Shown piece by piece: positions 2,607 to 54,664 of a stretch of 64,000 bases of DNA. The notes beneath the pieces are model-generated. The model was given only the letters and a program-made list of their open reading frames with translations. It was not told where the DNA came from and searched no databases. Made by a program: the position numbers and the translations under genes. Origin of the DNA: an uncultured Chloroflexia bacterium (lineage in GTDB: Bacteria > Chloroflexota > Anaerolineae > Anaerolineales > Villigracilaceae); assembly GCA_963709295.1 (NCBI GenBank), contig CAVPVW010000003.1:403283-467282 (forward strand), read 5' to 3'. Numbering within the stretch: position 1 is the stretch's first letter; each line of letters begins with the position of its first letter.

Positions 2607-2689
2607 ACTGCTCCAGGGCGGACTAACAATCCCCTTTCAAGGGGGCAAAGTCAAAACACAACCGAATAATTCCATAATAAAATAGACCT

Positions 2690-5273: not shown

Positions 5274-5325
5274 GCCAAATTCTCTGCGGTGTGTTCCTCA
5301 GGGAATTCAGTCAAAGGATTTCAAT

Positions 5326-6678: not shown

Positions 6679-6687
6679 GATACTCAC

Positions 6688-7386
6688 ATGGAAACCGACA
6701 AACGATGGACCATAGCGGTACTGGGGGGAACAGGCAAAGAAGGCAAAGGACTCGCTTCAAGGTGGGCAAAAGCCGGGTTATCGGTGGTCATTGGCTCAAG
6801 GAACATTGACAGGGCCAAGGAGGCTGCAGCAGAAATTAATTCGGCCAAATGTCCCATTTCGGTGCAGGGAAAAGATAATTTAAATGCGGCACGCGCAGCC
6901 GATATTGTTGTTCTCTCGGTGCCCTATTCAGCCCATCGGGAGACACTCGAAACAGTAAAATCCGCCTTGCAGGGAAAAATTCTTGTTGACGTTACGGTGC
7001 CATTGGTGCCTCCCAAGGTAACCAAAGTCCAGATGCCGCCTGCGGGATCCGCCGCACTCGAAGCAAGAGAAATCCTTGGTGACACTGCCGAAATCGCATC
7101 TGCCTTCCAAAACATATCTTTCGAACACCTTCAAGGGGATCACGAGATCGGCTGCGATGTTCTTGTCACCGGTACAAGCAAAGAAACCCGGGCAGTTGCA
7201 TTGGACTTGGTCTCGCAAGCCGGATTGGCAGGCTGGGACGCAGGTCCTTTGGAGAACTCGATGGTGGCTGAAGGTCTCACCAGCATACTGATCCATATCA
7301 ATAAGATCTACGGCGCCAACCATGCCGGAATTAAAATTACCGGTGTGCCGGATAAAAATCAACCCTCTCGGGAAATCACAAAGTAA
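6688..7386 (+). CDS. npdG: NADPH-dependent F420 reductase (F420H2:NADP+ oxidoreductase)
   Basis: N-terminal Rossmann motif IAVLGGTGKEGKGLASRWAKAGLSVVIGSR, typical of the Fno/NpdG family. ~230 aa. Confidence 0.65.
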   Translation: METDKRWTIAVLGGTGKEGKGLASRWAKAGLSVVIGSRNIDRAKEAAAEINSAKCPISVQGKDNLNAARAADIVVLSVPYSAHRETLETVKSALQGKILVDVTVPLVPPKVTKVQMPPAGSAALEAREILGDTAEIASAFQNISFEHLQGDHEIGCDVLVTGTSKETRAVALDLVSQAGLAGWDAGPLENSMVAEGLTSILIHINKIYGANHAGIKITGVPDKNQPSREITK

Positions 7387-8155
7387 ATGGCTTTATCGCT
7401 AATCCCACTCAAGGGGATCCCGATTATCACCCCAGGCTTGGACCTTGCCGAGGTGATAATAAAGGGTATGAACTCCTCCAACCTTGAACTTCAAGGCAAT
7501 GACATAATCGTCATCGCACAAAAAATAGTAAGCAAGTCCGAAGGGAGGCTGGTTAATCTTGCAACCGTTACCCCTTCCAGAGTCTGCAATCGAGCTGGGG
7601 ATCAAAGCAGACAAGGATCCGCGGCTGGTTGAATTAATCCTGAGAGAAAGCAACAAGGTACTTCGCACGCGCCCGGGAACGATCATCGTCGAGCACAAAT
7701 TGGGCTTCATATGTGCCAGCGCAGGAATTGACCATTCCAACGTAAGAGGCGAAGGAAACGCAAACGAAGAGTGGGTTTTACTCCTCCCCGAGAATCCCGA
7801 CGAGACTGCTCGTATTATCAGAAAATCCTTGGAAAAAAAATACGGCGTGCCGATCGGTGTGCTCATCAACGATTCGCATGGTCGCGCATGGCGCATCGGA
7901 ACAGTCGGGATAACCGTCGGGATCAGCGGCATTCCCGCGGTCGTTGATGAACGGGGGTGGAAGGATCTCACTGGGTTTAAATTGAGGATAACGGAGGTCG
8001 GGGCTGCCGATGAGTTGGCTGCAGCAGCCTCCCTTGTGATGGGTCAGGCTGCTGAAGGGACCCCAATTGTCCATGTTCGTGGTTTTCCTTATCCCCTGCG
8101 GGAAAGCCATCTCGGAGAGCTCCTAAGACCGAAGGATCAAGACTTATTCAGGTAA
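7387..8155 (+). CDS. cofE: Coenzyme F420-0:L-glutamate ligase CofE (FbiB N-domain-like), interrupted by an apparent 1-nt frameshift at ~7575-7585
   Basis: Frame 1 (7387-7632) gives the CofE N-terminus ...IAQKIVSKSEGRLVNL. Frame 2 (from 7559) continues PESAIELGIKADKDPRLVELILRESNKVLRTRPGTIIVEHKLGFICASAGIDHSNV. The frame switch is at ACCCCTTCCAGAGTC. Confidence 0.6.
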
Positions 8156-8178
8156 TCCCCCGATTGAAGAGGATCAAA

Positions 8179-8577
8179 ATGACAAAAATTCCTGACAGCC
8201 ACCTGGATTTACTAAAAGACGAATCAAAAGCCATCGCCTACCTGGCCACGATCATGAAAGATGGCTCCCCTCAAGTCACACCCGTCTGGTTCAACTTCGA
8301 TGGCGAGAATATTTTTATTAATTCCGCAGAAGGTCGTATCAAGGACCGAAATATGCGCTCGCGCCCCATCATCGCCATAACCATTCAGGATCCTGCCACC
8401 TTTTACCGGTATTTACAATTGCGAGGCAAGGTGATCGGCTTTTCCCACGACGGCGCCGACGACCACATCGATGCGCTGTCGTTCAAATACACTGGCAAGC
8501 CTCAATACGAATGGCGAAACAAGAACGAAAAAAGGATCAAATACAAGGTCCAGATCGACAAAGTGGATGCGCACTAA
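8179..8577 (+). CDS. PPOX-class (pyridoxamine 5'-phosphate oxidase-like) F420-dependent enzyme family protein
   Basis: Small split-barrel protein. The motif QVTPVWFNFDGENIFINSAEGRIK is typical of PPOX-class F420/FMN-binding proteins. GAAGAGGA RBS before the ATG at 8179. Confidence 0.5.
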   Translation: MTKIPDSHLDLLKDESKAIAYLATIMKDGSPQVTPVWFNFDGENIFINSAEGRIKDRNMRSRPIIAITIQDPATFYRYLQLRGKVIGFSHDGADDHIDALSFKYTGKPQYEWRNKNEKRIKYKVQIDKVDAH

Positions 8578-24086: not shown

Positions 24087-27066
24087 ATGAATATTACTTT
24101 GCACATTAATGGGAAAGACCATACCCTGGACATCCCCCCCGAGATGACATTGCTAAAAACACTCCGTCAATTGGGCTTTCACGGAGTCAAATTCGGGGAT
24201 GAACAAGGGATCAGTGGCGCAGATACCGTTCTCCTCGATGGCCGGCCAGTCAATGCCGGGCTGATGTTCGCTGCTCAAGCCGAAGGCCGCAAAATCGCCA
24301 CGATCGAAGCCCTTGGCGAACATCCGGACCAGGGCTGGCAAAAAACCGGCGGGTTGCATCCCATCCAGAAAGCATTCATAGAAAACGGGGCAATCCAATG
24401 TGGTTATTGCACCCCAGCCCAGGTGCTGGCTGCCAAGGCGCTACTGGACACAAATCCGAATCCTTCCGAAATCGAAGTGCGGGAAGCGCTGTCGGGAGTG
24501 CTTTGTCGCTGTACAGGTTACGCCAAGCCGGTACAGGCTGTCCTTAAAGCGGCTGCCGTGATGCGGGGGGAAGATCAATTCGATGGCAAGGAATACCTTA
24601 TTCCGGATGACAATCCTCCTTCTCCCTTACCCTCCAATGACGATTTGCCCGGAACAAACGGAGTGCAACTCAGCGTGATGCCCAAAGTCATCTTTGCGCC
24701 AAAGACATCGATTTACCAAACCGTGGGTAAGCCGGAAATTAAAGTGGATGCCATCAAGCTCGTGCAAGGGAAACCTGCCTTTGCTGCGGATATGGATCCC
24801 CGAGGGCTGCTGCATGCGAAGGTGCTCAGGTCACCGCATGCCCATGCCCGAATTAAAAGCATCGACACAACCAAAGCCAAGGCACTTCAGGGAGTCGCTG
24901 CAATCCTGACATGGAAAGACATCCCCCGGGTGGTGTACTCAACTGCCGGGCAGTCTGATCCAATCCCTGGCCCACTGGACACATTCTCTCTTGATAGCAA
25001 GGTCCGGTTTGTCGGTGATCGCGTGGCTTTTGTCGCGGCTGAATCGCCTGAAATCGCAGAGAAAGCCTGCAGGTTGATCGACGTCGAATACGAAGTGCTT
25101 GAACCGATTCTGGAATCGTCAAAAGCGCTGAACAATCAAGATAATCGCATCCATGATGAGTCTGAGTATGTCAATTTTGCGGGGTCGGATGCCGCCAGGA
25201 ACCTGGCCGCGGAAATCCGTATCGATATCGGTGACGTGGAAAAAGGATTCAGCGAGGCCGATGAGGTTTTTGAAGGCGTTTACGATGTGCCGAAGGTCCA
25301 GCAGGCGCATATCGAACCGCATGTCTGCATCACCTACTGGGACGAAGATGACCGCTTGGTCATACGTACATCGACGCAAGTCCCCTTCCACGTGCGGAGA
25401 ATGCTTGCTCCGGTTTTAGGCTTGCCGGTCAAGCGTATCCGCGTGATCAAGCCGCGAATAGGCGGCGGCTTCGGGGGAAAGCAGGAAGTCCTGATGGAAG
25501 ATGTGGCTGCGCACCTGACCATCGCCACAAAACGTCCGGTGCTTTACGAATATACCCGTGAAGAGGAGTTTATCGCAGCGCGCTCCCGTCATCCCATGAG
25601 GATTTGGATGAAAACCGGCGTAAAGCGCGATGGGACCTTGACGGCCAACGAGATGAAAGTACTCTCGGACACAGGCGCTTATGGCTGCCACGCTCTCACG
25701 GTGACCGGCAACACCGGGCACAAATCCATGGCGCTTTATGTTGGCGATGGCGCGTATCGCAAAGCGCCCAACATTCGTTTTTACGCGGACATCGTCTACA
25801 CCAACACTCCCCCGGCTGGAGCGTACCGAGGCTATGGCGTCCCTCAAGGATATTGGCCGGTCGAACGCCACATGGAAAAGATCGCCCGGGCGATGGGGTT
25901 AGATCCGCTCGAATTCAGGCTGAAAAATGCCATCCGTCCGGGCGAATACCATCCCTTCAGCACCGCCTGGAACGAAGGCCGGAAACCTCGTCCTGAGATC
26001 ATCCACACGGTCGGGTTGGAGCAATGCGTCCAGCAGGGAAAAGCAGCCATCGGTTGGGACGACAAAATTGACAATGCCGAATGGCACGACAACAAAACAT
26101 CAGGTAAGAGTTACTCTAAAAAAGGCATTGGTGTCGCGATGGTCATGCAAGGGACAGCCATCCCTTATCTGGACATGGGAGGCGCCTCCATCAAGATGAA
26201 CGACGACGGTTCCTTCAATCTCCTGGTCGGCGCAACCGACTTGGGGACCGGGTCAGATACCGTTCTTGCACAAATGGCGGCAGAAGTTTTGGGTGTGCCG
26301 TTGGATGACATCCTCACCTATTCGTCGGACACGGATTTCACCCCCTTCGACAAGGGGGCGTATGCATCCTCCACCACGTATATCTCCGGGACGGCCGTAG
26401 TGAAGGCGGCAGAAATCGCCGCGGATAAAATCAAGCAAAGGGCTGCCTTACTCCTTGATCTTGAAAGAGCATACCACTATCATCCTTAAAGATAAAAAAG
26501 CCAATGCTCCGGATGGGCGAAGCGTGACGCTTTCCGAAATCGCGCTCGATTCTCTTCACCGCCAGAAACAGGAACAAATCATGGGCGTGGCTTCGTACGT
26601 TTCACCTTCCTCGCCTCCTCCTTTTGCGGCCCAATTCGCAGAGGTTACTGTCGATCAGGAAACGGGCCAGGTCACTGTTGATAAACTCGTCATGGCCGTG
26701 GATTCCGGCATCATCGTCAATCCACTCACGGCTTCCGGACAAATTGAGGGCGGCATGATCCAGGCGCTTGGCTATGCGGTGTGTGAAGAGATGCGGTATG
26801 ATTCCCAAGGCAATGCCCGCGAGAAGGATTTCCTGGACTACCATATCTTCCGAGCCGACGAAGTTCCAGCCCTGGAGACGATCTTTGTGGAAACCTTCGA
26901 GCCCAGCCACCCCTTTGGGGTCAAAGCCGTGGCGGAAATCCCAATGGACGGAGTCGCTCCGGCAGTGGGGAATGCCATTTTGGATGCCGTGGGCGTAAAT
27001 ATCGATGAGAATCCAACCACGCCTGAGCGGGTGTGGAGAGCCTTGAAGAAATTAACACCGGCATAG
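24087..27066 (+). CDS. Molybdenum hydroxylase with fused [2Fe-2S] and molybdopterin-binding domains (XdhD-like xanthine dehydrogenase family), interrupted by an apparent frameshift at ~26465-26480
   Basis: N-terminus carries 2Fe-2S Cys clusters (IQCGYCTPAQV, LCRCTGY). It is followed by aldehyde oxidase/XDH a/b-hammerhead and MoCo domains. The ORF at 26455 in frame +1 continues the C-terminal MoCo dimerization domain (GVASYVSPSS...VNPLTASGQIEGG). Confidence 0.7.
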
Positions 27067-42005: not shown

Positions 42006-42728
42006 ATGAAAGTCATCACGAACGAGAAGCTGATTAAAAAATACAGCAACCTGGGGAAATATCTCAACATCGGCGCGATCGCGATTCTATTCGGCGGCAT
42101 GGCAATTTCATGGCTGCGAATTGACTTGTTTTACCTTGCGATGATCGCGCTCCTGGCTGGTTTTATCCTTTCACAGGTCAGTATATTTTTCATCAATCGT
42201 TGGGGTCGCCGACCGCGTCCGGATGAACGAATTACCAGCCAGCCTCAAAGGGCTGACAAACGATTACACGTTATATCACTACAACACACCTGTTTCACAT
42301 CTCCTGGTTGGACCAGCCGGTGTTTGGACAATTCTGCCTTACTTCCAGCGAGGGACGATCACGTACGAAAAAATCGATGGAAACAAAGAGGAGGCGGTCT
42401 CGGGCTGGCATATCTCAAGGTGTTTGCCCAGGAGGGACTTGGCCGACCTGATCTCAACTCAAAATCCGATGTTGACAAGTTGACCGAATTCTTCACCCAA
42501 GCCTTGGGAGCGGAAATTCCTGAAGTCAAATCTGTCCTGGTATTTACTGACAATCGTGCTGATCTGAAGGTGGAAGGGGCACCCATCCCCACCATGGCCG
42601 CAGAAGACTTAAAGGAATTTATCCGAAAACAGGCGAAGGAAAATTCCATGCCTGGAAGTTTACTCAGCTCGTTAAAATCCAATCTCCCGAAAGAAGAAAA
42701 ACCTGTCAAATCAGATAATGGAAAGTGA
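42006..42728 (+). CDS. Membrane-anchored NERD (nuclease-related domain) protein; the coding sense appears to leave and re-enter frame (two compensating 1-nt indels at ~42230 and ~42395)
   Basis: Two N-terminal TM helices in frame 0. The NERD-like core LKGLTNDYTLYHYNTPVSHLLVGPAGVWTILPYF is readable only in frame +1 (42223-42400). The C-terminal part (EIPEVKSVLVFTDN...) is again in frame 0. Confidence 0.45.
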   Translation: MKVITNEKLIKKYSNLGKYLNIGAIAILFGGMAISWLRIDLFYLAMIALLAGFILSQVSIFFINRWGRRPRPDERITSQPQRADKRLHVISLQHTCFTSPGWTSRCLDNSALLPARDDHVRKNRWKQRGGGLGLAYLKVFAQEGLGRPDLNSKSDVDKLTEFFTQALGAEIPEVKSVLVFTDNRADLKVEGAPIPTMAAEDLKEFIRKQAKENSMPGSLLSSLKSNLPKEEKPVKSDNGK

Positions 42729-42805: not shown

Positions 42806-45602
42806 ATGGCTTCCATTGTATCGATCGATATCGAAACCACCGGGCTCGATTCCAATAAAGATGTCATTATTGAGATCGGAGCGGTGAAATTTAAAGATCA
42901 TCGCATTGAAGATGAGTTCTCGACCCTGATTAACCCGGGAAGACATATCCCTGAATTCATCACTCAGCTGACTGGGATATCGGATGAAATGGTCCGCCAG
43001 GCACCGCGTATTCAGGAGGTCATAGACGAACTTGAGGCATTTGTCGGCGATTCAATTATCCTGGGTCACAATGTACGTTTCGATCTGGGTTTTCTCCAAA
43101 AGCACAAGATATTGCAATTCAATGAGGTCATTGATACTTACGAACTGGCCTCTGTCTTGCTGCCGACAGCCAGCAGATACAACCTCGGTGCCTTAGGGCA
43201 GCTGCTTGCGATTCCGCTTCCCGCAACGCATCGCGCACTGGATGACGCGCGTGTGACCCATCGCGCCTACGTATGCCTACACGAATACGGAAGGGAGCTC
43301 CCGCTCGATGTGCTTGCTGAAATCACTCGACTTGGCGAGCCGCTCGACTGGGATGCAAATCCCTTTTTTCAACAACTGATGAGGCTCCGCGCCAAGGAAG
43401 GCATCGCCAAGAAATCCGTCAGGCGCAGTACGCAAGAAAAACTGTTGGCGAATCTGGATTACGTCCGCCAGGAAGTGCTGAAGCCGGTTGATGAACCAAT
43501 TCCCCTCGACCCTGACGAGACTGCATCAATTCTCGAATACGGCGGTCCATTCTCAAAACATTTCGAAGCATTCGAACAACGGCCCGAACAGATCGAGATG
43601 CTGCGCGCCGTAACCGCCGCCCTTTCGCAAGGCCAATCATCTGATGGTTGAAGCCGGCACAGGCGTTGGAAAATCGTTTGCGTACCTTGTCCCGGCTGCC
43701 CTGTTCGCAACGCAGAACAACACGCGCGTGATCGTGTCTACCAACACCATCAACCTGCAGGATCAACTCATTCAGAAGGATATCCCCGCTTTGCGGGAAG
43801 CGCTGCAACTGGATCTGCGCGCAGCGGTACTCAAAGGACGCTCAAATTACCTGTGTCCGCGCCGCTTGGAGATTCTTCGCCACAATGGACCGCGGGATTC
43901 AGAAGAGATGCGTGTGCTTGCGAAGGTCCTGGTCTGGCTGGACGGAGGCGCCAGCGGTGACCGGAATGATATCAATCTCACCCGGCCTGCGGAGAAAGAT
44001 GTCTGGACCAAGATCTCGGCGGAGGACGATGCCTGCACCACCGAAACCTGCCTCGGACGCGAAGGCGGCGCCTGCCCTTTCTACCGGGCAAAACAAGCCG
44101 CTCTCACCTCGCATATCCTTGTTGTGAACCATGCCCTTCTCCTGGCGGACGTCGCTACGGGGAGCAAGGTGCTGCCCGAATACAACTATCTCATCGTTGA
44201 CGAAGCGCACCACCTCGAAGCGGCGACAACAGGTGCCTTGAGCTTCAAACTCACCCAGAATGACCTGGAGCGGATGCTCCGCGAAGTCGGCAGCCATCAG
44301 TCCGGGGTCCTTGGCTTTCTGCTGACTACGATCAAGGACACCATGCGCCCTTCTGATTTTGCGCATTTGAGCCAGGCCGTGCATCGGGCGGGAGAAATGG
44401 CTTTTCGTCTTGAGAATCAGGCCAGGGATTTTTTCTCCACGCTGCAGTATTTCATCAGCCAGCAAAGGGAGGGGAAACCGCAGAGTCAGTATGCCTATCA
44501 GGAACGGATCCTTCCTTCATCGCGAACACTTCCCGGTTGGGACGAAGTGGAAATTGCCTGGAGCGGCTCCGGTGAAACGCTTCGGTTGTTGTTGAATTTG
44601 ATGGCGGAAATTTATAAAACAGCCAGTGATCTTTACGCTGAAGGGCACGACGAACTCGAGGATGTTAATGGAAGTATCAGTTCCATTTTTCGCCGGTTGT
44701 CCGAAGCGGAAAACAACATCAGCGGGATGATCCACGAGCCTTCGCCGGAGATGATCTATTGGATCGAGATCCAGCCGAACGGTAATCGCTTGTCCCTGCA
44801 AGCTGCCCCGTTAAGAGTAGGGCCTCTCATTGAAAAATATCTATGGCACGAGAAGAACAGTGTCATCCTCGCTTCCGCCACACTGACGGCCGGCGGGGAT
44901 TTCAACTACATCCGCAACACGCTCAATGCCGATGAGGCCGACGAGCTATTCCTTGGTTCACCGTTTGACTACGAAAACTCGACACTCTTATACCTTGCCA
45001 AGGACGTGCCCGAACCCAATGCGCACGGATATCAACAGGCAGTGGACAGGACCCTACTTCATCTTTGTAAAGCCACAGGCGGGCGGACGTTGGTGTTGTT
45101 TACATCGTACGCGCAGTTGAAGCGGACATCCCAGAACATCACCGGTCCTCTCGCAGACGATGGCATTCTTGTTTACGAACAAGGCGAAGGCGCTTCACCC
45201 AACACGCTCCTCGATGCTTTCAAGACCACCGACCGCGCCGTGCTGCTGGGCACCCGCTCCTTCTGGGAAGGCGTGGATATTCCCGGAGAGCAGCTCTCCG
45301 TCGTGGTATTGGTCAAGCTGCCCTTTGATGTCCCTTCAGACCCTCTAATTGCTGCCAGATCCGAGACTTTCGAGGACCCGTTCAACGAATACCAACTCCC
45401 TGAGGCAATTCTCAAATTTAGACAGGGATTCGGGCGCCTGATCCGAACGGCATCCGACCGAGGGGTTGTGGTTGTCCTCGACCGCCGGCTGCTCACCAAG
45501 CCCTACGGGCGATCATTTATCGAATCATTGCCGCAATGCACATTACGGCAGGGGTCGCTTTCAGACTTGCCAAAACAAGCTGCCAAGTGGCTAAATCTCT
45601 GA
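42806..45602 (+). CDS. dinG: DinG-family ATP-dependent helicase with N-terminal DnaQ-like 3'-5' exonuclease domain (Gram-positive-type DinG); apparent 1-nt frameshift at ~43637-43641
   Basis: Exonuclease motifs (VSIDIETTGLD, HNVRFDLGFL, HRALDDAR) in frame 2. The helicase starts MVEAGTGVGKS (Walker A) in frame 0 immediately after the stop. Includes the DEAH-like box (LIVDEAHHLE), the Fe-S cysteine region (CPRR...C...C..C) and the C-terminal helicase domain. Confidence 0.75.
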
Positions 45603-45764
45603 TCACCGCCTTCCGAAACCAGCCCCCTAACGCTAAAAACTTAAAAAAAGTGCAAATTCCCACAATTTTGTGAAGAATTGCGCTATAATCATTAAGGTTT
45701 CATTAATCTAATGACTTTTGTCATAAGTGTTCGTGATAAATGTGCTTGTCCCTTCATCCCGCGA

Positions 45765-45792
45765 TTGTTTATCATTAAGGGTGGATTATAAT
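45765..45792 (+). promoter_or_regulatory. Sigma70-like promoter TTGTTT, 16 nt, TATAAT in an AT-rich 280-nt leader region upstream of the hexaheme lipoprotein gene
   Basis: Hexamers at 45765-45770 and 45787-45792. ~90-nt 5' UTR, then TAAGGAGA RBS and ATG at 45882. The spacer contains one copy of a TCATTAAGG repeat. Confidence 0.5.
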
Positions 45793-45881
45793 AATATTAA
45801 TCATTTATAAGGAGGAGCGTATAAGAGCACTCACCTGACCTTTACATAGTTTTGCCCAAACTTAACTAAGGAGAATGTAAA

Positions 45882-46895
45882 ATGCATAAGAAAATGTTGT
45901 TGCTCGCAGCTGTTGTTGTAGCCCTTTCGTTCGTCCTGGTTGCCTGCGCCGGCCCCGAAGGCCCGCAAGGACCTGATGGCCCGCAAGGCCCTGCCGGCCC
46001 GCAAGGCGAGCCTGGAGTGATGCCTGCTGCCACTGACCTAACCTGCGCCGAATGCCATAACGATACCCACCTCATTGCCAGCAAGACAGCCGCCTGGGAA
46101 TTGGAAGCGCACGGAAACGGTGGAGCCATGGTAGAAGAATATGGCAATAAAAGCTGCGCGGGCTGCCACTCCGGTAACTCGTTCAGCGCCATGATCGCCG
46201 CAGGCCAGAACTTCAGCCAGGTCGAAGCTGGTGCTACTGAGCCTGCCCGCCAGGACTGCCGCGCCTGCCATCAGGTCCATACCACCTACACCGGTGAGGA
46301 CTGGGCGCTTGAGACCACTGCCCCGGTCACGATGGTCGTGAGTGGTTTGACTTTCGACAAAGGTAACAGCAACCTGTGCGCCAACTGCCATCAGGCACGC
46401 CGTTACATGGCCAATTTCGTCGACAAGACCGATGCGACCAAGTACACGCTCACCAATCCGCGTTTTAATCCTCACCTGAGCGTTCAAGCCGACTTCCTTA
46501 TGGGATCCGGCGGCTCAGGCGTGGAAGGCAAACCCGGCGCGCATTATGCCATGCTTGAAGACTCCTGCGTGGCGTGCCACCTTGGTGAAGGCAACAATCA
46601 CCTCTTTGAGGCGCAGCTTGCCACCTGCGTGGCCTGCCATACCGATGCCGAGAGCCTCGACGTCAACGGCGCTGTAACCAAGATCGAAGAGAGAATGGCC
46701 GAACTCAAGACTGCTCTCCAAGCCGCTGGACTTCTTGATGCGGATGGCGCTGCAGTCCCCGGAACCTACACTGAGGCACAGGCTATTGCACTGTGGAACT
46801 ATGGTGCGATCGAAGAAGACGGAAGCAACGGTGTTCATAATCCGAACTACGTCAATGCCTTGCTTGATGCGGCGTTCGCAGCATTAGGCCAATAA
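45882..46895 (+). CDS. Hexaheme c-type cytochrome lipoprotein with N-terminal collagen-like (Gly-Pro-X) tether
   Basis: Lipobox LVAC at aa 19-22, then GPEGPQGPDGPQGPAGPQGEPG. Six CxxCH motifs (CAECH, CAGCH, CRACH, CANCH, CVACH, CVACH). Confidence 0.75.
   Translation: MHKKMLLLAAVVVALSFVLVACAGPEGPQGPDGPQGPAGPQGEPGVMPAATDLTCAECHNDTHLIASKTAAWELEAHGNGGAMVEEYGNKSCAGCHSGNSFSAMIAAGQNFSQVEAGATEPARQDCRACHQVHTTYTGEDWALETTAPVTMVVSGLTFDKGNSNLCANCHQARRYMANFVDKTDATKYTLTNPRFNPHLSVQADFLMGSGGSGVEGKPGAHYAMLEDSCVACHLGEGNNHLFEAQLATCVACHTDAESLDVNGAVTKIEERMAELKTALQAAGLLDADGAAVPGTYTEAQAIALWNYGAIEEDGSNGVHNPNYVNALLDAAFAALGQ
45951..46016 (+). repeat. Collagen-like coding tandem repeat (7 Gly-Pro-X triplets; near-perfect 9-nt DNA repeat GGCCCGCAAGGNCCT)
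   Basis: Read directly from the sequence. The antisense strand gives a spurious GPCGPSGP ORF. Confidence 0.8.
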
Positions 46896-46933
46896 GCCAT
46901 CCGGGCGCCAGCGACAATTAGCAATTAACAAAA

Positions 46934-46970
46934 TAAAAAAACGGATGCTTCTGCATCCGTTTTTTTATTT
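46934..46970. terminator. Bidirectional rho-independent terminator between convergent genes
   Basis: AAAAAAACGGATGCTTCTGCATCCGTTTTTTTATTT: 8-bp stem, 4-nt loop, A and T tracts on both sides. Confidence 0.8.
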
Positions 46971-46975
46971 ATCGC

Positions 46976-47584
46976 TCAATCGGTCTCTTTCCAATGTTTC
47001 CCCAGCGCCTTACTGCTTTCTGCATGATCGGAGATGATGATCAATGCCGTAGTGACATTCCCTCCAGAACTTCTCCAACTATGCTTTAACTGTGCAGCAA
47101 ATAACAAGCTGTCTCCCGATTCCAAGATATAGTTTTGTTTTTCGACACGATATTCCAGCTTGCCCCGCAAACAAAACACAAACTCGTGCCCGGTGTGAGA
47201 CATCGGAACCAGTCCGCTGCTGGCGCCATTCTCCAGGTTCACCAGGAAGGGCGATACCTTTCCAACAAACTGCTCCCCGCCCAATCCTTCCATGTTGCCG
47301 CGATTAAACGCAATGTGAGTTCGTTCATTCGACTTGAGAAAAACCACTTCCTGCTTCTCAAGCTGATGACTGAAAAACTCCGTGATTGGCACACCCAATG
47401 CATCCGACAACTTATACAACGTGCTCACTGAAGGAGATGTCTTTCCGCGCTCGATCATGCTGAGCGCATTCGCGGATAATCCGCTCTTGACGGCCAACCC
47501 GCGCATGGAGATATTTTGTTCTTCGCGCAGCTGCTTCAGCCGCTGGCCAACATCCACCGACAAAGCTTCTTTTTCGTAGACCAT
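46976..47584 (-). CDS. XRE-family HTH transcriptional regulator with C-terminal cupin domain
   Basis: N-terminal HTH_3 (LKQLREEQNISMRGLAVKSGLSANALSMIERGKTSPSVSTL). C-terminal cupin beta-barrel (GHEFVFCLRGKLEY...GDSLLF). GGGAGG RBS. Confidence 0.65.
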   Translation of the reverse strand: MVYEKEALSVDVGQRLKQLREEQNISMRGLAVKSGLSANALSMIERGKTSPSVSTLYKLSDALGVPITEFFSHQLEKQEVVFLKSNERTHIAFNRGNMEGLGGEQFVGKVSPFLVNLENGASSGLVPMSHTGHEFVFCLRGKLEYRVEKQNYILESGDSLLFAAQLKHSWRSSGGNVTTALIIISDHAESSKALGKHWKETD

Positions 47585-47640
47585 GGTACCTCCCGGTATT
47601 CGTAATTAGTCAAATAATATCCCAATTGTACTACAAGTTT

Positions 47641-47666
47641 ATGTGACGAAATACTACTTTTCACAT
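47641..47666. promoter_or_regulatory. Candidate operator: inverted repeat ATGTGA-N14-TCACAT, plus repeated TTTCACA motifs in the divergent promoter region
   Basis: Inverted repeat at 47641-47646 / 47661-47666. TTTCACA at 47659 and 47683. Lies between the divergently transcribed XRE-cupin and ArsR-family genes. Confidence 0.35.
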
Positions 47667-47749
47667 GACACTTTGCACTACATTTCACAATACCCCAAGG
47701 GATATTATTGCTTTGTATATTCGTTTATTCGTATATAGGCCAAGACAAA

Positions 47750-48085
47750 ATGATTACACCTACTCTCGCTCAAGAAGTCTCCCGTTTGGAAGCAGATCTT
47801 TGCTTTGCACTATCGGACCCTACCCGGATTCTGATTCTCTATGCTTTGGATGAAAGGCCTCAAAACGTAAACGAGATCACTGCGGCACTCGCCATTTCAC
47901 AGCCCACCACCTCCAGGCATTTAAAAATCCTGCGCGATAGAGGTCTCGTTACAACGAACAGATTGGGTACGACCATCACCTACCATCTGGTCGACCGTCG
48001 CCTGATCCAGGCATTGGACCTGCTCCGAAGCGTTTTAAGGGACAGTCTTGTTCGCCGCGCCAGCCTGGTTGAAGAACTCGAATAA
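47750..48085 (+). CDS. ArsR/SmtB-family metalloregulator-type HTH repressor
   Basis: LSDPTRILILYALDERPQNVNEITAALAISQPTTSRHLKILRDRGLV is the canonical ArsR winged-helix signature. The start at 47750 was chosen over the upstream AT-rich extension. Confidence 0.65.
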   Translation: MITPTLAQEVSRLEADLCFALSDPTRILILYALDERPQNVNEITAALAISQPTTSRHLKILRDRGLVTTNRLGTTITYHLVDRRLIQALDLLRSVLRDSLVRRASLVEELE

Positions 48086-48114
48086 CCCCACCCTCCCCAC
48101 TTGGAGAAGCGACA

Positions 48115-49554
48115 ATGAAGAATAATAGACCCTATTGGATACTGGGAGCCATCGCCATCTTTATCATCATCATCCTCCCGGTGTTTTATTTCTTGCCCAA
48201 GGACGCACAAGCCAAAGATGACCCCTGGGCACATATGCCTGTCAAGGCTGTGCATGTCGATCACAAGGACATCGTCCAGGGACCATTCGAAACCTCGCAA
48301 GAAGTCACTTTGCGCTGCCTGGAGTGCCACCCGGAAGCCGCAGAACAGGTCATGGCAACCTCGCACTGGACCTGGGAAAGTGAACCCTTCGACGTACCCT
48401 GGCGCGATGAACCCGTCACGATTGGCAAGATCAACCAACTTAACAACTTTTGCATCAGCGCACAAGGTAACCAAAAGAAATGCATGTCCTGCCATATCGG
48501 AGTTGGCTGGCAGGAAGGCGAGCAGCCTTTCGATTTCACAAAAACCGAAAACATTGACTGCCTGGCCTGTCATGCAGACAAGTCAACTTACGCAAAAGGC
48601 GAATATGGCAATCCGGCCGAGGGCATCGACCTCCTGGCTGCTGCACAAAGCGTGAAGGCACCCGACCGGACCAACTGCGGCTCCTGCCACTTCAACGGCG
48701 GCGGCGGCAACAACGTCAAGCACGGAGACCTTGATGAAAGTCTTTACAACCCGACCGAGACCACCGACGTTCATATGGGCCGCTATGATTTTCTATGCAC
48801 TGATTGCCACCAGACCAACGATCATGCCGTCAAAGGAAAACTCGTAGCGGACAATTACGAAGTGGATCCTTCCGAACAGGTCGCTTGCACAGATTGCCAC
48901 AACCAGGAACCACACGGCGATGAGCGCTTGAATGGACATACTGCGTCCGTGGCATGCCAAACCTGTCACATTCCATCGATGGCAGTAAAGAATCCAACAA
49001 AACTGAACTGGGACTGGTCCACTTCCGGGCAGGACAAGCCGGAGGATCATTATACTTATCTCAAGATCAAAGGCGATTTTGTATACGACGAAGATGTCCC
49101 GCCGGTTTACAGGTGGTCAAACGGAAACCTCACCTATAGATACCTTTTGGGCGACAAGATCGATCCTTCAGTGCCTACGGTCATCGACCAACCTGCAGGT
49201 GACATAGACGACTCCCAGGCGAAGATCATGCCCTTCAAACTTCACGTCGCCAGTCAACCGTATGACACGGGGTTCAACTATTTACTCGCGCCTATCACTG
49301 CCGGTCCGGATGGTTATTGGACTAACTTTGATTGGGATAATGCCTTTGAGCTGGCAGAACCCATAACCGGCCTCGAGTATAGTGGAGACTTCAGTTTCGC
49401 CGAGACCTGGATGTACTGGCCGACCACTCACATGGTCCAGCCGAAGGAAAACGCCCTGCAGTGCGACGAATGCCACAGCGAAAGCGGCCGTCTCGACTGG
49501 GAAAGCCTGGGATACCCCGGCGACCCGATCGAATGGGGCGGGCGCTCAGAGTAG
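48115..49554 (+). CDS. Octaheme c-type cytochrome, Otr (octaheme tetrathionate reductase) family-like, N-terminally membrane-anchored
   Basis: N-terminal TM/signal anchor. Eight CxxCH motifs (CLECH, CMSCH, CLACH, CGSCH, CTDCH, CTDCH, CQTCH, CDECH). SHWTW after heme 1, as recalled for the Otr family. GGAGA RBS. Confidence 0.65.
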   Translation: MKNNRPYWILGAIAIFIIIILPVFYFLPKDAQAKDDPWAHMPVKAVHVDHKDIVQGPFETSQEVTLRCLECHPEAAEQVMATSHWTWESEPFDVPWRDEPVTIGKINQLNNFCISAQGNQKKCMSCHIGVGWQEGEQPFDFTKTENIDCLACHADKSTYAKGEYGNPAEGIDLLAAAQSVKAPDRTNCGSCHFNGGGGNNVKHGDLDESLYNPTETTDVHMGRYDFLCTDCHQTNDHAVKGKLVADNYEVDPSEQVACTDCHNQEPHGDERLNGHTASVACQTCHIPSMAVKNPTKLNWDWSTSGQDKPEDHYTYLKIKGDFVYDEDVPPVYRWSNGNLTYRYLLGDKIDPSVPTVIDQPAGDIDDSQAKIMPFKLHVASQPYDTGFNYLLAPITAGPDGYWTNFDWDNAFELAEPITGLEYSGDFSFAETWMYWPTTHMVQPKENALQCDECHSESGRLDWESLGYPGDPIEWGGRSE

Positions 49555-49611
49555 CAATAGTATTTCATCATGAGAATTCCAGCATCACTTTCACACCAGG
49601 TGGATATCACC

Positions 49612-52418
49612 ATGACCCATTGGAAAAAAATATCAACTGCGAGAAGGTTAGTTATTACAGGGGTTGCAATTCTGGCAGCGGCCAGCTTGGCGCTATTTGT
49701 CCAGAATGTTTTCGCACAAGTTGGCGCAACCAAGGACGAACAACCCTCCCCTCTCCATCCCACATTTGCGATGCTGGATGAAAACGGGGTCAGTGTCATC
49801 GAGAGCGGCGAGGCTGTATCCACCTTGAAGACCTGCGGACAATGCCATGACACAGAATTCATCACAAGTCACAGCTACCATTCAGATGCAGGGCTTGGAA
49901 GCATGGGAATGCCCGGGCAGGAAACAGACGGAATGCCTTGGGACTCAAGCGATGGGCTGTTTGGGAAGTGGGATCCATTGCTCTATCGTTACCTGACTGT
50001 CACAGGGTGACCAGAACCTTGACCTGAGTACAGCCGAATGGATAAAAACCTACGGCTTGCGGCACGCGGGCAGCGGTCCCGCGGAAATGAGCAGGGATGG
50101 TCAACCACTCGAATCACTTGATCCTTCCATTCAGGACCCCGAAGCGAGTATCTTGAATGAAAACTCCGGGAAAGCGCAACGCTGGAACTGGGACGAATCC
50201 GGTACCATCGAGATGAATTGTTTCCTCTGCCATTTCACATCGCCGAATAACGATGCGCGTATCGCGGCGATTTCGGATGGAGAGTTTGCCTGGGCCAACA
50301 CCGCCACGCTGATCGGAACCGGCCTGGTTGAAAAGGTCGCTGGCGGATACGAATGGAATATCGGGGCATTTGAGCAGGATGGCAAGCTCAAGACAAGACT
50401 TTGTACTGGTGCAGGACCCAAAAAACGAGAATTGTGCCCAGTGCCACGGATTGGTCCAAGCCGACCCTGCCACACCAGTGGTACTTTCCGGCTGTGAACT
50501 CGAATACCCCGAATCGGCCACAACCGGGCAGATCATCTCTTCGCAGCAAATATCTGAATCGGGCATGAATATTCAGGACAAAGCCAGCCTGACCCGCTCC
50601 TGGGATATTCACGCTGAACGAGCTTTATCCTGCACGGATTGCCACTACTCAATTAACAACCCCGTTTATGCCTTGCCGGATGAACAAGCGCCGGAACATC
50701 TCCTCTTCGATCCCAGAACACTGGATCTCGGTGCTTACTTAAAACAGCCCGATCATAATTTTGCCCGAGGGCAAAGTGATTCGAACGAAATCAGCGCTGC
50801 ACCCGAAATGCGCCGGTGCGATTCCTGCCACGATTCACAATCAAGTCACGAAGACTGGCTTCCTTACGTCCAGCGGCATATGGAAACCGTTGCCTGCGAA
50901 ACCTGTCACATCCCCGAAATGTATGCGCCCGCCATCCAAAGCTACGATTGGACGGTCATTCATCAGGATGGCACACCGGTCGCTACCTGCCGAGGTGTTG
51001 AAGGCGACACGGGGACCATCAACGACCTCGTGACGGGATATCAACCGGTCATTCTTCAGCGCACAGAAGCTGACGGCGGTAAATTTCTCGCTCCGTACAA
51101 CCTGATCACCTCCTTCTTCTGGGTTTATACGGATGACAACGGAAACGAACGCCCCGTCCGTTCGTTCGACCTCGAAGAAGCCTACCTGGAGGATGGCAAC
51201 TATTCACAAGGCGTTATCGCTGCATTCGACGCTAACGGAAACCAGCAACTCGAGAAGTCAGAATTGCTGATCGACAACGATGTAAAGCAATCTTTGATTG
51301 CATCCAAGCTTTTGGAACAGGGCATCCACGAGCCCCGCATCCAGGGATATGTTCAAGCTTATGGGGCAAGCCACGGCGTCACATCGAGTGAGTACGCTAT
51401 CAATGATTGCGCTGTCTGCCATAACCGGGACTCTCGGATAGCGTCGTCCATTTTACTTGCGGACCATACGCCGGGTAATGAAATTCCATCGCTCGAATCG
51501 GACAATGCAGTTACCGCCAGCGGAGAAATCGCCCTCAACGAGAACGGCTCTGTCAGCTTCACCCCTCAGCCGGAGAATGAGCAGGTTTACATTCTTGGTT
51601 ACAGCTATGTCTACTGGGTGGATGCATTTGGAGCCATCATGTTCGTGGGTGTGCTGCTGGCCATCCTGGCACACGCGACAATACGCATTATTTCTAACCT
51701 TCGTCACAAGCCTGCCAAAACCGATGTTCACAAAGTCTACATGTACGACTCTTATGAACGGTTATGGCACTGGTTGCAGACCGCCGCCATCGTCATTCTC
51801 CTGTTCACCGGCCTGGTCATCCATCGTCCGGACCTGTTTGGAGCCTTCTCATTCCGAAATATGGTGTATGTCCATAATATCATCTGGATGCTGCTAGCGA
51901 TTAACGCAGCTTTATCGCTCTTTTACCACCTCGCCAGTGGAAGAATCAAGCAATTTATCCCGCGGCCGTATGGATTTTTTGATGAGGCGATTATCCAGGC
52001 GAAATATTACATCAAGGGAATTTTTAAACACGAGTCTCACCCGTTTGAGAAGAACCCTGATAAGAAAATGAACCCGCTTCAGCAGGTTACTTACTTCGGG
52101 ATCCTTAATATCCTGCTGCCTCTGCAAGGATTGACCGGGATTGCCATGTGGGGCCTGCAGAGATGGCCGGATATTTCAACTGCGCTTGGCGGGTTGGTCT
52201 GGCTTGCTCCCTTCCACACCCTCATCGCCTGGACGTTTGCCACCTTTATCCTGGGGCATGTGTATCTCACGACCACCGGCTCAAAACCTCTTGACGGGAT
52301 CAAGGGGATGGTGACGGGCTGGGAGGACGTTGAGGTTCATCACGAACAACCCAACCCTGAGGATGTATCTCAGGATCAAACAACCAATAACGATCAAGCT
52401 CCCACTAAGGAGGATTAA
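49612..52418 (+). CDS. CbcL-like fusion: periplasmic heptaheme c-type cytochrome domain + C-terminal diheme cytochrome b (HydC/FdnI-type) membrane domain; two apparent 1-nt frameshifts (~49995 and ~50390)
   Basis: Signal peptide. Seven CxxCH motifs spread over three frames (CGQCH; CFLCH; CAQCH, CTDCH, CDSCH, CETCH, CAVCH). C-terminal 4-TM cytochrome b domain with conserved His (WHWLQTAAIVILLFTGLVIH, HNIIWML, FHTLIAWTFATFILGHVYL). The reading sense is continuous across the frame switches. Confidence 0.6.
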
Positions 52419-52421
52419 TCC

Positions 52422-52995
52422 ATGACTACTGCAGATATGCCTGCGCAAAAACCTTCAAAATTCAAACAATTTCTGTTTGGTCGCCCGGTAAAGCCCTACG
52501 TACACCCCTACCTGGGCGGCACACTCCTGGGAATTGTGTTATTCCTGGCGTTTTTCCTAACCGGCAACGGCCTCGGCGCATCCGGTGGCATGAACAGGAT
52601 CGTAGTCTTCTTTGAAGATCTCATCGCTCCTGCTCACATCGACCAGGTAGCTTACTTGCTCAAGATGGCGGGCGGGGTCGAAGAATCCGCTGGACGATTG
52701 GATCATTCCTGTTGTCATTGGCGCCCTGCTTGGGGGCTTTGTGTCCGGGTGGTTTAACGGACGCTTAAAAGTGGAAACCAATAAGGGTCCGCAAATCACA
52801 GTAAAAACCCGCTGGATGATGGCTTTCATCGGCGGGACGATCATGGGGTATGGCGCCCGATTCGCTCGCGGCTGCACATCCGGACAGGCACTCTCAGGAG
52901 GCGCCACGCTTGCCGCCGGGTCATGGGTATTGATGTTCTGCATTTTCGGCAGTGGGTATGCACTCGCATATTTTGTGCGCAGGCTTTGGTTGTAA
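52422..52995 (+). CDS. YeeE/YedE-family sulfur-compound transporter, first half-unit (TsuA-like); apparent 1-nt frameshift at ~52685
   Basis: AAGGAGG RBS. N-terminal TM pair in frame 0. Continues in frame +1 as LDDWIIPVVIGALLGGFVSGW...FARGCTSGQALSGG (the conserved GCTSG Cys motif of the family). Confidence 0.55.
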
Positions 52996-53007
52996 AAGGA
53001 GGATGAG

Positions 53008-54249
53008 ATGAATTTTCCCCTTGCAGCTTTTACTAATGTGTCCGCTCTCAACCCCTGGACCTATTTGGTCTTTGGATTGATCGGCTTTGGGTTTGGGTTC
53101 GTACTCGAAATTTCCGGATTTGGTAATTCAAAGAAACTTGCCGCCCAGTTTTATTTTACAGAGATGACGGTTCTCAAGGTCATGTTCACGGCAATTGTCG
53201 TCGCGATGGTATTGCTTGCCATCGCCACAGGCTTGGGAATTCTGGACATCAACCAGGTATGGATTAATCCAACTTACCTTTGGCCTGGAATAGTCGGTGG
53301 ACTCATCATGGGAGTTGGGTTCATTATCGGCGGCTTCTGCCCCGGGACGTCCCTGGTTTCCATGGCGACATTCAGGGTGGATGGTCTTTTCTTTGTTCTC
53401 GGGAGTCTTTTTGGGATCTTCCTTTTCGGAGAGACCGTCCAGTATTTTGAGGGGTTCTGGGAAAGCAGTAATTACGGCCGATTGACGCTTATGGATTGGC
53501 TGGGATTAACCACCGGACAGGTGGTGCTCATCATCGTTCTGATGGCATTGTTGATGTTTGCATTTGCCGAACTGATGGAATCGTTTATTGGAAAAAGGGA
53601 CTTAAAAGCAGAGCCTAAGCTTCGAATAGCCGGCGCAGCACTGTTGATAGCGGGAGCTGTGGCAGTATTGATCATCGGCCAGCCCACTCTTTCAGAGAAA
53701 TGGGCAAAGATATCATCCGTAAAAGAAGCCTCGTTGGCAGCCAGGGAAGTTCAAATTTCACCCGCTGAATTGTTGTCCACGAAGGCGAATGACGGATTGC
53801 GATTGGTAATGCTCGATATTCGACCCGAATCCGAGTACAACCTCTTCCACATCGATGGAGCAGCAAATGTACAGCCGGAGGCACTTGAAAAGGTCGCCGC
53901 AGACATCATTTCCCAGTCTGCGCCGAACCTGGTCGTGGCGGTTATGAGCAACGACGAGGATGCTGCGACTGAAGCCTGGAAAGTTCTAACCGCGGCAAGT
54001 GTCGCGAATGTTTACATCCTCGAGGGTGGAATCAATAACTGGATATCCGCCTTTGGCAAGGAGGAATCGGAGATTACACCGATTGCCTCCGACCAAGTCG
54101 AAAATGACTCTCTGCGCTATCTTTTTGATTCGGCACTGGGCAACCGTTACGAATGTTCAGATCCCAATCCGCACGAATACGATCTCGAATTCGAACCAAA
54201 GATCAAGCTCGAGCTCAAACGCGATAAAAGTGGTGGTGGCTGCGGCTAA
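53008..54249 (+). CDS. YeeE/YedE-family transporter, second half-unit, fused to a C-terminal rhodanese domain
   Basis: GGFCPGTSLV Cys motif in the TM domain. C-terminal LRLVMLDIRPESEYNLFHIDGAANV rhodanese fold. AAAGGAGG RBS. Confidence 0.6.
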   Translation: MNFPLAAFTNVSALNPWTYLVFGLIGFGFGFVLEISGFGNSKKLAAQFYFTEMTVLKVMFTAIVVAMVLLAIATGLGILDINQVWINPTYLWPGIVGGLIMGVGFIIGGFCPGTSLVSMATFRVDGLFFVLGSLFGIFLFGETVQYFEGFWESSNYGRLTLMDWLGLTTGQVVLIIVLMALLMFAFAELMESFIGKRDLKAEPKLRIAGAALLIAGAVAVLIIGQPTLSEKWAKISSVKEASLAAREVQISPAELLSTKANDGLRLVMLDIRPESEYNLFHIDGAANVQPEALEKVAADIISQSAPNLVVAVMSNDEDAATEAWKVLTAASVANVYILEGGINNWISAFGKEESEITPIASDQVENDSLRYLFDSALGNRYECSDPNPHEYDLEFEPKIKLELKRDKSGGGCG

Positions 54250-54283
54250 CATCCATGCGCGCGGTCTGATATTCATTCGGGCT

Positions 54284-54327
54284 AAATCAACTGTCCCTGC
54301 GACACCATTCGCAGGGACAGTTGATTT
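54284..54327 (+). terminator. Terminator-like element: 18-bp perfect inverted repeat with 8-nt loop, weak T-tract
   Basis: AAATCAACTGTCCCTGCG ACACCATT CGCAGGGACAGTTGATTT then ATAATTTG. Unusually long stem. Confidence 0.5.
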
Positions 54328-54403
54328 ATAATTTGATAGTGAAAACTCGCCAGCTCCAAGTAAGCAGTCTGTCACATTGTTTTTTTGTCACCCGGAGGTA
54401 AAC

Positions 54404-54664
54404 ATGGATGAATTGAAATGGGAGCTTCTGACAGAATCCTCAGGTCGTTTTGAGGCTGACCTATTAAAGTCATACCTCGAAGCGGAGGGGATTGAGGTGC
54501 AGCTTTTCCAGGAAGGAGCCGGGCAGGACATCTACCCGCTGACTTTTGGCCCCTTGGCAATGGTGCAGGTCTTTGTCCCAAACGATAAGATCAATGACGC
54601 TCGATCCATTTTGGAAAACTTTAATTCGCAAGGAGATGATTCTTCTGCCGAAGAAGAGAATTGA
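54404..54664 (+). CDS. DUF2007-like small protein (putative signal-transducing/PII-like fold)
   Basis: GGAGGT RBS. ~86 aa, acidic C-terminus. Upstream of and overlapping the acyl-CoA dehydrogenase ORF. Confidence 0.4.
   Translation: MDELKWELLTESSGRFEADLLKSYLEAEGIEVQLFQEGAGQDIYPLTFGPLAMVQVFVPNDKINDARSILENFNSQGDDSSAEEEN

Follow-up and report, generated by a model that had tools for sequence, protein, structure and literature searches.

In Shewanella and the Desulfuromonadia, the gene for the octaheme cytochrome Otr stands alone or beside genes for a small cytochrome c and a DUF3373 protein, and in a metagenome-assembled genome (MAG) of the Ignavibacteria an Otr cluster includes a cytochrome b561 (PMC7509429). 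A different way of linking hemes to the membrane is found in CbcL of Geobacter sulfurreducens, where a compact domain of 29 kDa contains nine hemes and the protein has six transmembrane (TM) helices (PMC9129911). On the side of sulfur transport, a heterodimer has been suggested for the short YeeE proteins PmpA and PmpB, roughly 130 residues each (PMC11582611). In SoxY, sulfur intermediates are carried by a cysteine in the GGCGG arm at the carboxy terminus (PMC6067878), and according to one proposal this arm passes sulfur on to YeeE-like SoxT channels, which in turn feed ArsR-type repressors (PMC11582611). We describe here an operon in which relatives of several of these systems stand side by side. 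It lies in a 64,000-nucleotide stretch of contig CAVPVW010000003.1 from an uncultured Chloroflexia bacterium (GenBank assembly GCA_963709295.1), which we call the window, and it encodes, in this order, an ArsR-type regulator, an Otr-family octaheme cytochrome, a heptaheme-c/diheme-b fusion protein, and two YeeE/YedE channel halves, A and B, the latter extended by a rhodanese-like domain and a cysteine-bearing arm. All coordinates are positions in the window, and the gene content was taken from the listing of open reading frames (ORFs) and from scans with hidden Markov models (HMMs).

This five-gene order is the conserved unit. The proteins of the window were searched by tblastn against all 88 related loci that were fetched, and the order ArsR, Otr, fusion, YeeE-A and YeeE-B/rhodanese was kept in 88 of 88 wherever the contig allows; among the loci with a contig long enough to show it, most have the ArsR gene upstream of otr. 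Since the genes flanking the cassette are unrelated from genome to genome while the order inside it holds, the cassette is self-contained. An earlier note on this DNA had set a synteny check beforehand, looking out for homologs that are never co-localised in related genomes, and the result is the opposite. The relatives of the fusion protein, which number more than 1,800 when counted as 90%-identity clusters and are 900–940 residues long, come almost all from MAGs of Anaerolineales and other Chloroflexota. In a scan of one genome per species, at least 527 pattern-matched stretches encode such a relative. No gene contributes more than two of them, which places the cassette in several hundred species. 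It is a widespread operon of the Anaerolineae (Chloroflexota), present in several hundred genomes. A few cassette genes also turned up on short contigs in MAGs of other phyla, labelled Gammaproteobacteria (L078), Bacteroidota (P0087) and Acidobacteriota (P0126); at 53–59% identity to the window proteins, these look like mis-binned Chloroflexota rather than horizontal transfer.

Every component of the cassette belongs to a known family, and the combination is without a published description that we could find, in keeping with the earlier note, which had thought it an undescribed operon type. In the literature on Chloroflexota and Anaerolineae, neither the operon nor its fused partner nor the cysteine arm was found described, and what the Anaerolineae literature does hold is presence or absence calls of otr in bins. 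The operon is compact, with intergenic gaps of 29, 57, 3 and 12 nt, and hairpins delimit it on both sides. Upstream, an 18-bp stem with A and T runs on either side (46931–46970; fold −23.5 kcal/mol, z = −8.3) forms a bidirectional intrinsic terminator between two convergent genes outside the operon, one for a hexaheme lipoprotein and one for an XRE-cupin regulator. Downstream of the last gene, on the same strand, a second hairpin (54284–54327; fold −35.8 kcal/mol, z = −9.1), with a stem of 18–20 bp and a run rich in U after it, probably terminates the operon at its 3' end.

The second gene of the operon (48115–49554, forward strand) encodes a 479-residue cytochrome that scores 549 bits with the Otr model TIGR04315, against a cutoff of 375, and also matches PF11783 at 1e-55. 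Its residues 50–473 align to residues 4–434 of the Otr of S. oneidensis (1SP3) with E = 3.5e-134 and about 49% identity, making it a full-length homolog, as the earlier note had proposed. All eight CxxCH motifs are kept in 74 of 74 homologs from the related loci. Lys105, which aligns with the GK of RGKKNS in 1SP3, and Cys113, in the motif NNFC, are each conserved in at least 95% of these homologs. We take Lys105 to be equivalent to Lys56 of 1SP3, the lysine ligand of its catalytic heme. The heme motifs, the position of the lysine ligand and the NNFC cysteine are thus shared with the Shewanella enzyme, from which the present protein differs by a long N-terminal hydrophobic segment, a stretch of roughly 20 residues that may be an anchor or a signal. 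This segment suggests that Otr is membrane-anchored on the outer face. The genetic setting differs as well: around otr of Shewanella algae, of Malonomonas and of one other genome, neither the gene for a fused c7/b partner nor YeeE genes were present. The Ignavibacteria cluster is closer in one respect, since there too the link to quinol presumably runs through a membrane cytochrome b encoded with Otr. In that cluster, however, b561 is described as a separate protein, and neither a c7 fusion nor a YeeE pair, a rhodanese arm or an ArsR is reported (PMC7509429).

The third gene (49612–52418, forward strand) encodes the presumed electron donor of Otr, a protein of 934 residues once two single-nucleotide insertions, at 50004 and 50396, are removed. 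Its signal peptide precedes an outside domain of about 650 residues with seven CxxCH motifs, after which come one TM helix and a cytochrome b domain of four TM helices. Seven motifs are present in 84 of 86 homologs, and the outside domain includes a heme-free insert of about 170 residues. The b domain matches PF01292 (Ni_hydr_CYTB) at 2.4e-21; the nearest more specific model is that of PhsC, at 133 bits and below its cutoff of 204. His719, His754, His868 and His882 are invariant and spaced as in FdnI, and the best structural matches of the b domain in Foldseek are FdnI and HyaC (1KQF_C and 6G94_A). Two more histidines, His737 and His772 in TM1 and TM2 (numbering of the homolog P0001; about 51700–51900 in the window), are also invariant across 22 homologs and could mark a quinol site or an extra cofactor, beyond the four expected ligands of the b hemes. 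As to the c domain, residues 323–452, with three hemes, are homologous to hemes 5–7 of Otr (hhalign 96%, E = 2.4e-9), and the protein weakly matches MmcA (TIGR04314, 36 bits, below cutoff); apart from these two, no further homology of the c domain was detected. A model of the whole fusion by AlphaFold2 (AF2) was also tried for heme placement and fold comparison, and at a predicted local distance difference test (pLDDT) score of 55.5 the Foldseek results were interpretable for the b domain alone.

The earlier note had compared this protein to CbcL, and the comparison holds for the architecture: both proteins join a periplasmic multiheme c domain to a diheme b membrane domain of the FdnI/HydC type in one polypeptide, an architecture that implies quinol oxidation. 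It does not extend to the heme content. The published description of CbcL, with nine hemes in 29 kDa and six TM helices, is at variance with seven hemes over about 650 residues, and part of the c domain here resembles Otr. For these reasons the fusion is best described as CbcL-like in design and not as a member of the CbcL family. The partners of the two proteins differ too, PpcA in the case of CbcL and a presumed enzyme, Otr, in the case of the fusion.

The last two genes of the operon make up a split YeeE. Half A (52422–52995, forward strand; 190 residues once an insertion at 52679 is removed) is PmpA-like and matches the C-terminal half of YeeE: it aligns with residues 236–327 of the thiosulfate transporter YeeE of Spirochaeta thermophila, including the motif of Cys293, with which its invariant Cys152, in ARGCTSGQ, is aligned. 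Half B (53008–54249, forward strand; identified through Pfam) is PmpB-like and covers positions 4–185 of the Pfam model Sulf_transp, the N-terminal half of YeeE. Its invariant Cys111, in GGFCPGTS, was assigned to Cys91 from the description of PmpB (PMC11582611). The gene order is thus reversed relative to full-length YeeE, with the C-terminal half encoded first. With PmpAB the pair shares two adjacent genes that match the C- and N-terminal halves of YeeE and carry one invariant cysteine each; both halves are, however, longer than the roughly 130 residues of PmpA and PmpB, and half B adds an H7-like helix, a further TM helix, the outside rhodanese-like domain and the cysteine arm (PMC11582611). 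The pair was also compared with the full-length transporters TsuA and SoxT (PDB 6LEO and 8J4C). TsuA/YeeE transporters are single chains of nine TM helices with three conserved cysteines, whereas the channel here is split over two genes with two conserved cysteines in total and falls far below the TsuA cutoffs, which places it outside the TsuA/YeeE equivalog.

After the H7-like helix, half B has an extra TM helix at residues 207–226, followed by the rhodanese-like domain at about 230–400 (PF00581, 2.7e-13; AF2 pLDDT above 90), whose Foldseek matches include Sud and YgaP. A split YeeE/YedE with a rhodanese domain had been described in the earlier note, and both genes and the domain are present; what is missing is the catalytic cysteine. 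The active-site position is occupied by Met313, followed by the conserved Ser314-Asn315-Asp316-Glu317, and none of 72 homologs has a cysteine in the active-site loop. The domain is therefore not a classical sulfurtransferase. A cysteine is found instead at the very end of the protein, in the tail KRDKSGGGCG-COOH, which is disordered in the AF2 model and is invariant in the 72 homologs as well as in independent database matches. This residue, Cys412, is the sole conserved cysteine in the soluble part of half B. Neither the arm nor the frameshifts had been mentioned in the earlier note.

The tail invites comparison with SoxY, with which it shares the Gly-rich C-terminus, the one invariant cysteine, the predicted extracytoplasmic setting and the vicinity of a c-type cytochrome enzyme and a YeeE-like channel. 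The sequence SGGGCG is similar but not identical to GGCGG, and the bearer of the arm is a rhodanese fold joined to the channel, not a SoxY/SoxZ protein; a carrier role of the arm is putative. No sox genes are present in the annotated flanks of the cassette. Among rhodanese proteins, Sud of Wolinella, a periplasmic polysulfide-sulfur transferase, has a rhodanese fold that works with a respiratory sulfur reductase, as the present domain may do. In E. coli, an ArsR-type regulator and a membrane-anchored rhodanese, YgaV and YgaP, are paired in one operon, which parallels the pairing seen here. YgaV has been listed among the ArsR-type sulfur sensors (PMC12423496). Both Sud and YgaP, however, carry their catalytic cysteine in the active-site loop, where the present domain has SNDE and keeps its cysteine in the C-terminal tail.

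The rhodanese-like domain and its arm probably face the outside, in the compartment that Otr and the c7 domain share. The full-length protein YeeE crosses the membrane nine times and ends in the cytoplasm (YeeD fusion structure 8J4C; PMC11582611), so that its N-terminal half should have both ends outside, with the central helix leading inward. The counts of Lys and Arg in half B, taken over alignments, alternate between outside and inside, with a strongly positive loop at residues 188–206 (5.7 K+R) just before the helix at 207–226. TM5 of half B would accordingly be the equivalent of the central helix and TM6 an added helix that crosses outward. The positive-inside pattern and the nine-helix topology of YeeE together point to a rhodanese-like domain and an arm that face outside.

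The first gene of the operon (47750–48085, forward strand) encodes the ArsR/SmtB-family regulator, of 111 residues counted from the ATG at 47750. It scores 78.6 bits with NF033788, above the cutoff of 55, and 44 bits with the BigR model, whose cutoff is 155. Cys18 is invariant and is the sole conserved cysteine among 66 homologs. An ArsR equivalog named TsoR was also considered as a clue to the effector and was set aside, as the score of 56 bits is below the cutoff of 115 and the literature gave nothing relevant. Divergent from the operon, on the reverse strand, lies the gene of a 202-residue XRE-HTH/cupin regulator (46976–47584; HTH_3 and Cupin_2), which is PuuR-like at 75 bits, below cutoff, and occurs in this divergent position in about half of the related loci. 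The HMM scans thus agree with the earlier note that two regulators sit in the locus. The 165 bp between them (47585–47749, 34.5% GC against a window average of 51%) form the divergent promoter/operator region. Within it, a direct repeat ACTAC(T/A)TTTCACA occurs twice with a spacing of 24 nt, and a perfect 11-nt inverted repeat, AATAATATCCC/GGGATATTATT, occurs with a spacing of 75 nt; these repeats are possible operator sites.

What might such an operon do? We lean, with modest assurance, towards a respiratory role in which menaquinol, by way of the c7/b fusion, delivers electrons to Otr for the reduction of an oxidised sulfur compound outside the cell, the sulfur species being handled by the arm and the PmpAB-type channel. 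In this scheme, menaquinol would be oxidised at the FdnI/HyaC-type diheme cytochrome b domain, and the seven c-hemes of the fused domain on the outside would lead the electrons on to Otr, anchored in the membrane and with a Lys-ligated catalytic heme. Otr would then reduce an oxidised inorganic sulfur compound at the outer face of the membrane, with tetrathionate as the leading candidate, to judge by its family. The two YeeE halves would form a heterodimeric channel of the PmpAB type, and half B would bear, on the outer face, the non-catalytic rhodanese-like domain and the flexible Gly-rich tail with its one cysteine. Between Otr and the channel, this tail may bind or carry a sulfur species, be it thiosulfate, a thiosulfonate or sulfane sulfur, and the channel may in turn import it for assimilation, as a signal to the ArsR-type repressor, or for both. 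The data establish which genes are present, their homology, the conservation of their order and motifs, and where the operon begins and ends; the membrane topology, the direction of electron flow, the substrate and the carrier role of the arm are what we infer here. The chain from quinol through the c/b fusion to Otr remains the natural reading of the genes, as in the earlier note, and it does without the hexaheme shuttle that the note had placed between the last two.

Several observations weigh against this reading. The physiological substrate of Otr is itself unsettled, and in vitro the enzyme acts on nitrite and hydroxylamine as well (PMC10949509, PMC7887784). Two conserved cysteines that form a sulfur bridge define the sulfane-sulfur sensors SqrR, BigR and SoxR (PMC12423496), whereas the ArsR protein here has one. 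The YeeE halves score 31 and 19.5 bits against TsuA equivalog cutoffs of 400 and 645, and no gene for a TusA-like partner (TsuB/YeeD/PmpC) is present in the cassette in the annotated loci. The SNDE loop of the rhodanese-like domain is acidic and not an obvious anion-binding site. The topology of half B is a prediction, and the AF2 model of the 934-residue fusion is too poor (pLDDT 55.5) to show the heme wiring. Finally, of the five frameshifts in the window, three are found within 2.7 kb of the cassette.

A more specific form of the proposal takes the cysteine arm to be a covalent substrate carrier, tethered to the channel and serving Otr first and the PmpAB-type channel afterwards. The arm would react, for example, with tetrathionate to give an arm-bound thiosulfonate, which would be presented to Otr for reductive cleavage, and the leftover sulfane sulfur or thiosulfate would be passed into the channel. 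We consider this unlikely as it stands, though with a real chance of being right. If true, the Sox carrier system would have here a counterpart that is reductive and driven by quinol, and Otr would gain a natural protein-bound substrate. A channel-tethered carrier cysteine that serves a multiheme reductase is also the one element of the cassette that, if confirmed, could be new in kind.

Other functions would fit parts of the operon. The in vitro activity of the S. oneidensis Otr towards nitrite and hydroxylamine, together with a physiological role that has been called unclear (PMC10949509, PMC7887784, PMC6896113), would suit a nitrogen-oxide module, in which Otr is a quinol-linked reductase of nitrite or hydroxylamine (or NO) for detoxification or ammonification and the YeeE pair is unrelated or loosely coupled. 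This would leave unexplained why the YeeE/YedE pair with its rhodanese-like cysteine arm is strictly co-linear with otr in every locus; the regulator is moreover of the ArsR type, and nap, nrf, hcp and amt are absent from the annotated flanks, so that we regard a nitrogen function as quite unlikely. Somewhat more doubtful still is an oxidative, Sox-like function, in which Otr would conjugate or oxidise thiosulfate or sulfide onto the cysteine arm, as SoxXA does with SoxY, with the electrons going by way of the c7/b protein into the quinone pool and the arm-bound sulfur being imported through the channel. The likeness of the tail to the SoxY arm (PMC6067878) and the published model of import from SoxY to SoxT (PMC11582611) both speak for it. 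Against it, Otr is known as a reductase, and genes for SoxB, SoxZ and sHdr are absent from the annotated flanks. The tetrathionate/thiosulfate couple also has a far more positive potential than menaquinone, which is assumed to be the quinone of Anaerolineae, and on general bioenergetic grounds the reduction of the quinone would be uphill.

The multiheme character of the proteins also raises the thought of a monoderm-type conduit for extracellular electron transfer, in which the fusion, Otr and, in some genomes, extra multiheme lipoproteins would lead electrons to Fe(III), electrodes or humics. The architecture does parallel that of CbcL (PMC9129911), Otr-group cytochromes are abundant in the Desulfuromonadia (PMC11492766), and an extra multiheme cytochrome is encoded nearby in the window and in 9 of 84 loci. 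About 90% of the loci, however, are without extra multiheme genes, and the one in the window lies behind a terminator; Otr retains the Lys-ligated catalytic heme expected of an enzyme, and the obligatory partnership with YeeE and the rhodanese arm would have no role in a conduit, which makes this explanation highly improbable. We give the least credence to selenium or tellurium oxyanions, by which the module would reduce selenite or tellurite and selenium would be trafficked on the cysteine arm, YedE-type channels having been linked to selenium metabolism. Half A does match the selenium YedE/FdhT model, but weakly, at 24 bits against a cutoff of 350, and while the regulator is of the ArsR/SmtB metalloregulator type, none of selD, yedF or selenoprotein genes was seen beside the cassette, and the closest solved homolog of the channel is a thiosulfate transporter.

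A doubt of another sort is whether the cassette is functional in this particular genome at all. The earlier note had read the c/b fusion as one gene, and the seven CxxCH motifs are indeed fused to Ni_hydr_CYTB, but the gene is not one ORF: in the window, 1-nt insertions at 50004 and 50396 spread it over three frames, and another at 52679 spreads half A, the first of the YeeE genes, over two. If these insertions were real, the cassette would be a recently inactivated pseudogene cluster. Their clustering around the cassette, noted above, agrees with this, as does the intact state of the fusion gene in all 88 of the 88 related loci. There is, however, much that speaks for errors of sequencing or assembly. 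A contig that is 91.5% identical to the window over 6,045 nt (L003) shows exactly three indels relative to it, all of them 1-nt insertions in the window, and with these removed the two genes are open over 934 and 190 residues with zero stop codons. The ratios of nonsynonymous to synonymous substitution rates (dN/dS) against L003 are 0.05 for otr, 0.11 for the fusion, 0.03 for YeeE-A and 0.06 for YeeE-B, and the corrected genes are thus under strong purifying selection. All five frameshifts in the window are +1 insertions, where natural decay would be expected to bring deletions too. Those outside the cassette fall in housekeeping genes, those for the DinG protein and for the molybdenum (Mo) subunit of a xanthine dehydrogenase. 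A similar breakage of the cassette is also seen on a long-read contig (L092). From the uniform +1 bias, the housekeeping genes affected and the strong purifying selection, we conclude that the three insertions in the cassette are most likely sequencing or assembly errors and not biological inactivation, and that a pseudogene cluster is unlikely, if less so than any of the four alternative functions above. The apparent split genes being best explained by single-base insertion errors, caution is warranted with gene calls from this assembly.

As for the two frameshifts elsewhere, the gene for a DnaQ-exonuclease/DinG helicase (42806–45602) has a +1 shift near 43636–43644, which leaves ORFs of 281 and 652 residues, and its homolog in a 77%-related contig (L001) is intact at 931 residues. 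A Mo subunit of the xanthine-dehydrogenase/aldehyde-oxidase type (24087–27066) appears to be split by a +1 shift near 26455–26489, and the 203-residue ORF so produced has just the last part of the MoCoBD_2 domain. A suspected frameshift in the ORF at 42006–42728 was rejected, the L001 homolog aligning in a single frame, and of the overlapping ORF pairs elsewhere most are separate genes by Pfam and just the Mo subunit, near 26460, is split. On L092 (ENA ERZ25039459 contig_90740, 124 kb), the cassette at 2204–8573 is broken into many short gene calls, with Otr at 309 residues, YeeE-A at 96 and 94, and YeeE-B at 235 with its rhodanese part separate at 190, in a manner that resembles indel errors of that assembly. 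We also looked for the rhodanese-arm domain as a stand-alone protein, and the short matches, of 170–314 residues, turned out to be truncated calls or frameshifted copies of the cassette; breakage of the L092 type explains such "stand-alone rhodanese" entries in the databases.

Under the respiratory reading preferred here, the operon has some bearing on how these bacteria are described. The Anaerolineae rank with the most abundant and the least understood bacteria of sediments, aquifers, anaerobic digesters and activated sludge, and their otr is currently scored by metagenome surveys simply as tetrathionate reduction. In the Anaerolineae loci studied here, otr is always inside a fixed operon, which brings its own presumed quinol-oxidising cytochrome and a sulfur channel with a cysteine arm predicted to be external. 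The cassette offers a concrete and testable electron path and a genomic marker that is better than otr alone, as well as a lead on the physiological role of Otr enzymes and of the short YeeE proteins of the PmpAB type.

The hexaheme cytochrome upstream is a different matter. Its gene (45882–46895, forward strand; 337 residues, identified from the ORF, the HMM scans and the CxxCH count) encodes a lipoprotein with the lipobox LVAC, seven GXY triplets that would make a collagen-like tether, and six CxxCH motifs, all much as the earlier note had described it. The GXY stretch reaches 17.6 bits with the collagen Pfam model, below the threshold of 27.2, and a search of PDB sequences with the whole protein returned collagen peptides only. 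In six of seven relatives that were read (P0361–P0378), however, the lipobox cysteine is followed directly by a short Gly-X-Y run, mostly Gly-Pro-X, and the combination is therefore a trait of the family. The run looks like a conserved collagen-like tether between the lipid anchor and the heme domain. The family is uncharacterised and comprises about 628 clusters at 50% identity (E ≤ 1e-10).

The earlier note had seen in this protein a shuttle within the module, and this part did not hold up. A clear homolog is present in 1 of 87 other loci (L075, 49% identity), and a different multiheme protein of 733 residues takes its slot in L001. Genes with at least three hemes occur in the flanks of 9 of 84 loci and are heterogeneous. 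Between the hexaheme gene and the operon lie the hairpin at 46931–46970 and the convergent XRE gene, and the hexaheme gene is accordingly a separate transcription unit, an accessory neighbour outside the conserved module. An AT-rich promoter region had also been assigned to the whole locus. AT-rich regions do exist, the one at 47585–47749 described above and another at 45603–45881 (forward strand, 36% GC, or 0.358), but the latter belongs to the hexaheme transcription unit and not to the conserved cassette. One weak sigma-70-like match is found in it, at 45746–45775, upstream of the hexaheme gene.

On the other side of the operon, 3' of its terminator, there is a small ORF of about 86–95 residues (54404–54661, listed as 54377–54664), followed by an acyl-CoA dehydrogenase gene. 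It has no Pfam match recorded in the related loci. In L001 and L002, both at 77% identity, it is collinear with the window, and weaker matches to it are seen several kb off the cassette in a few other loci.

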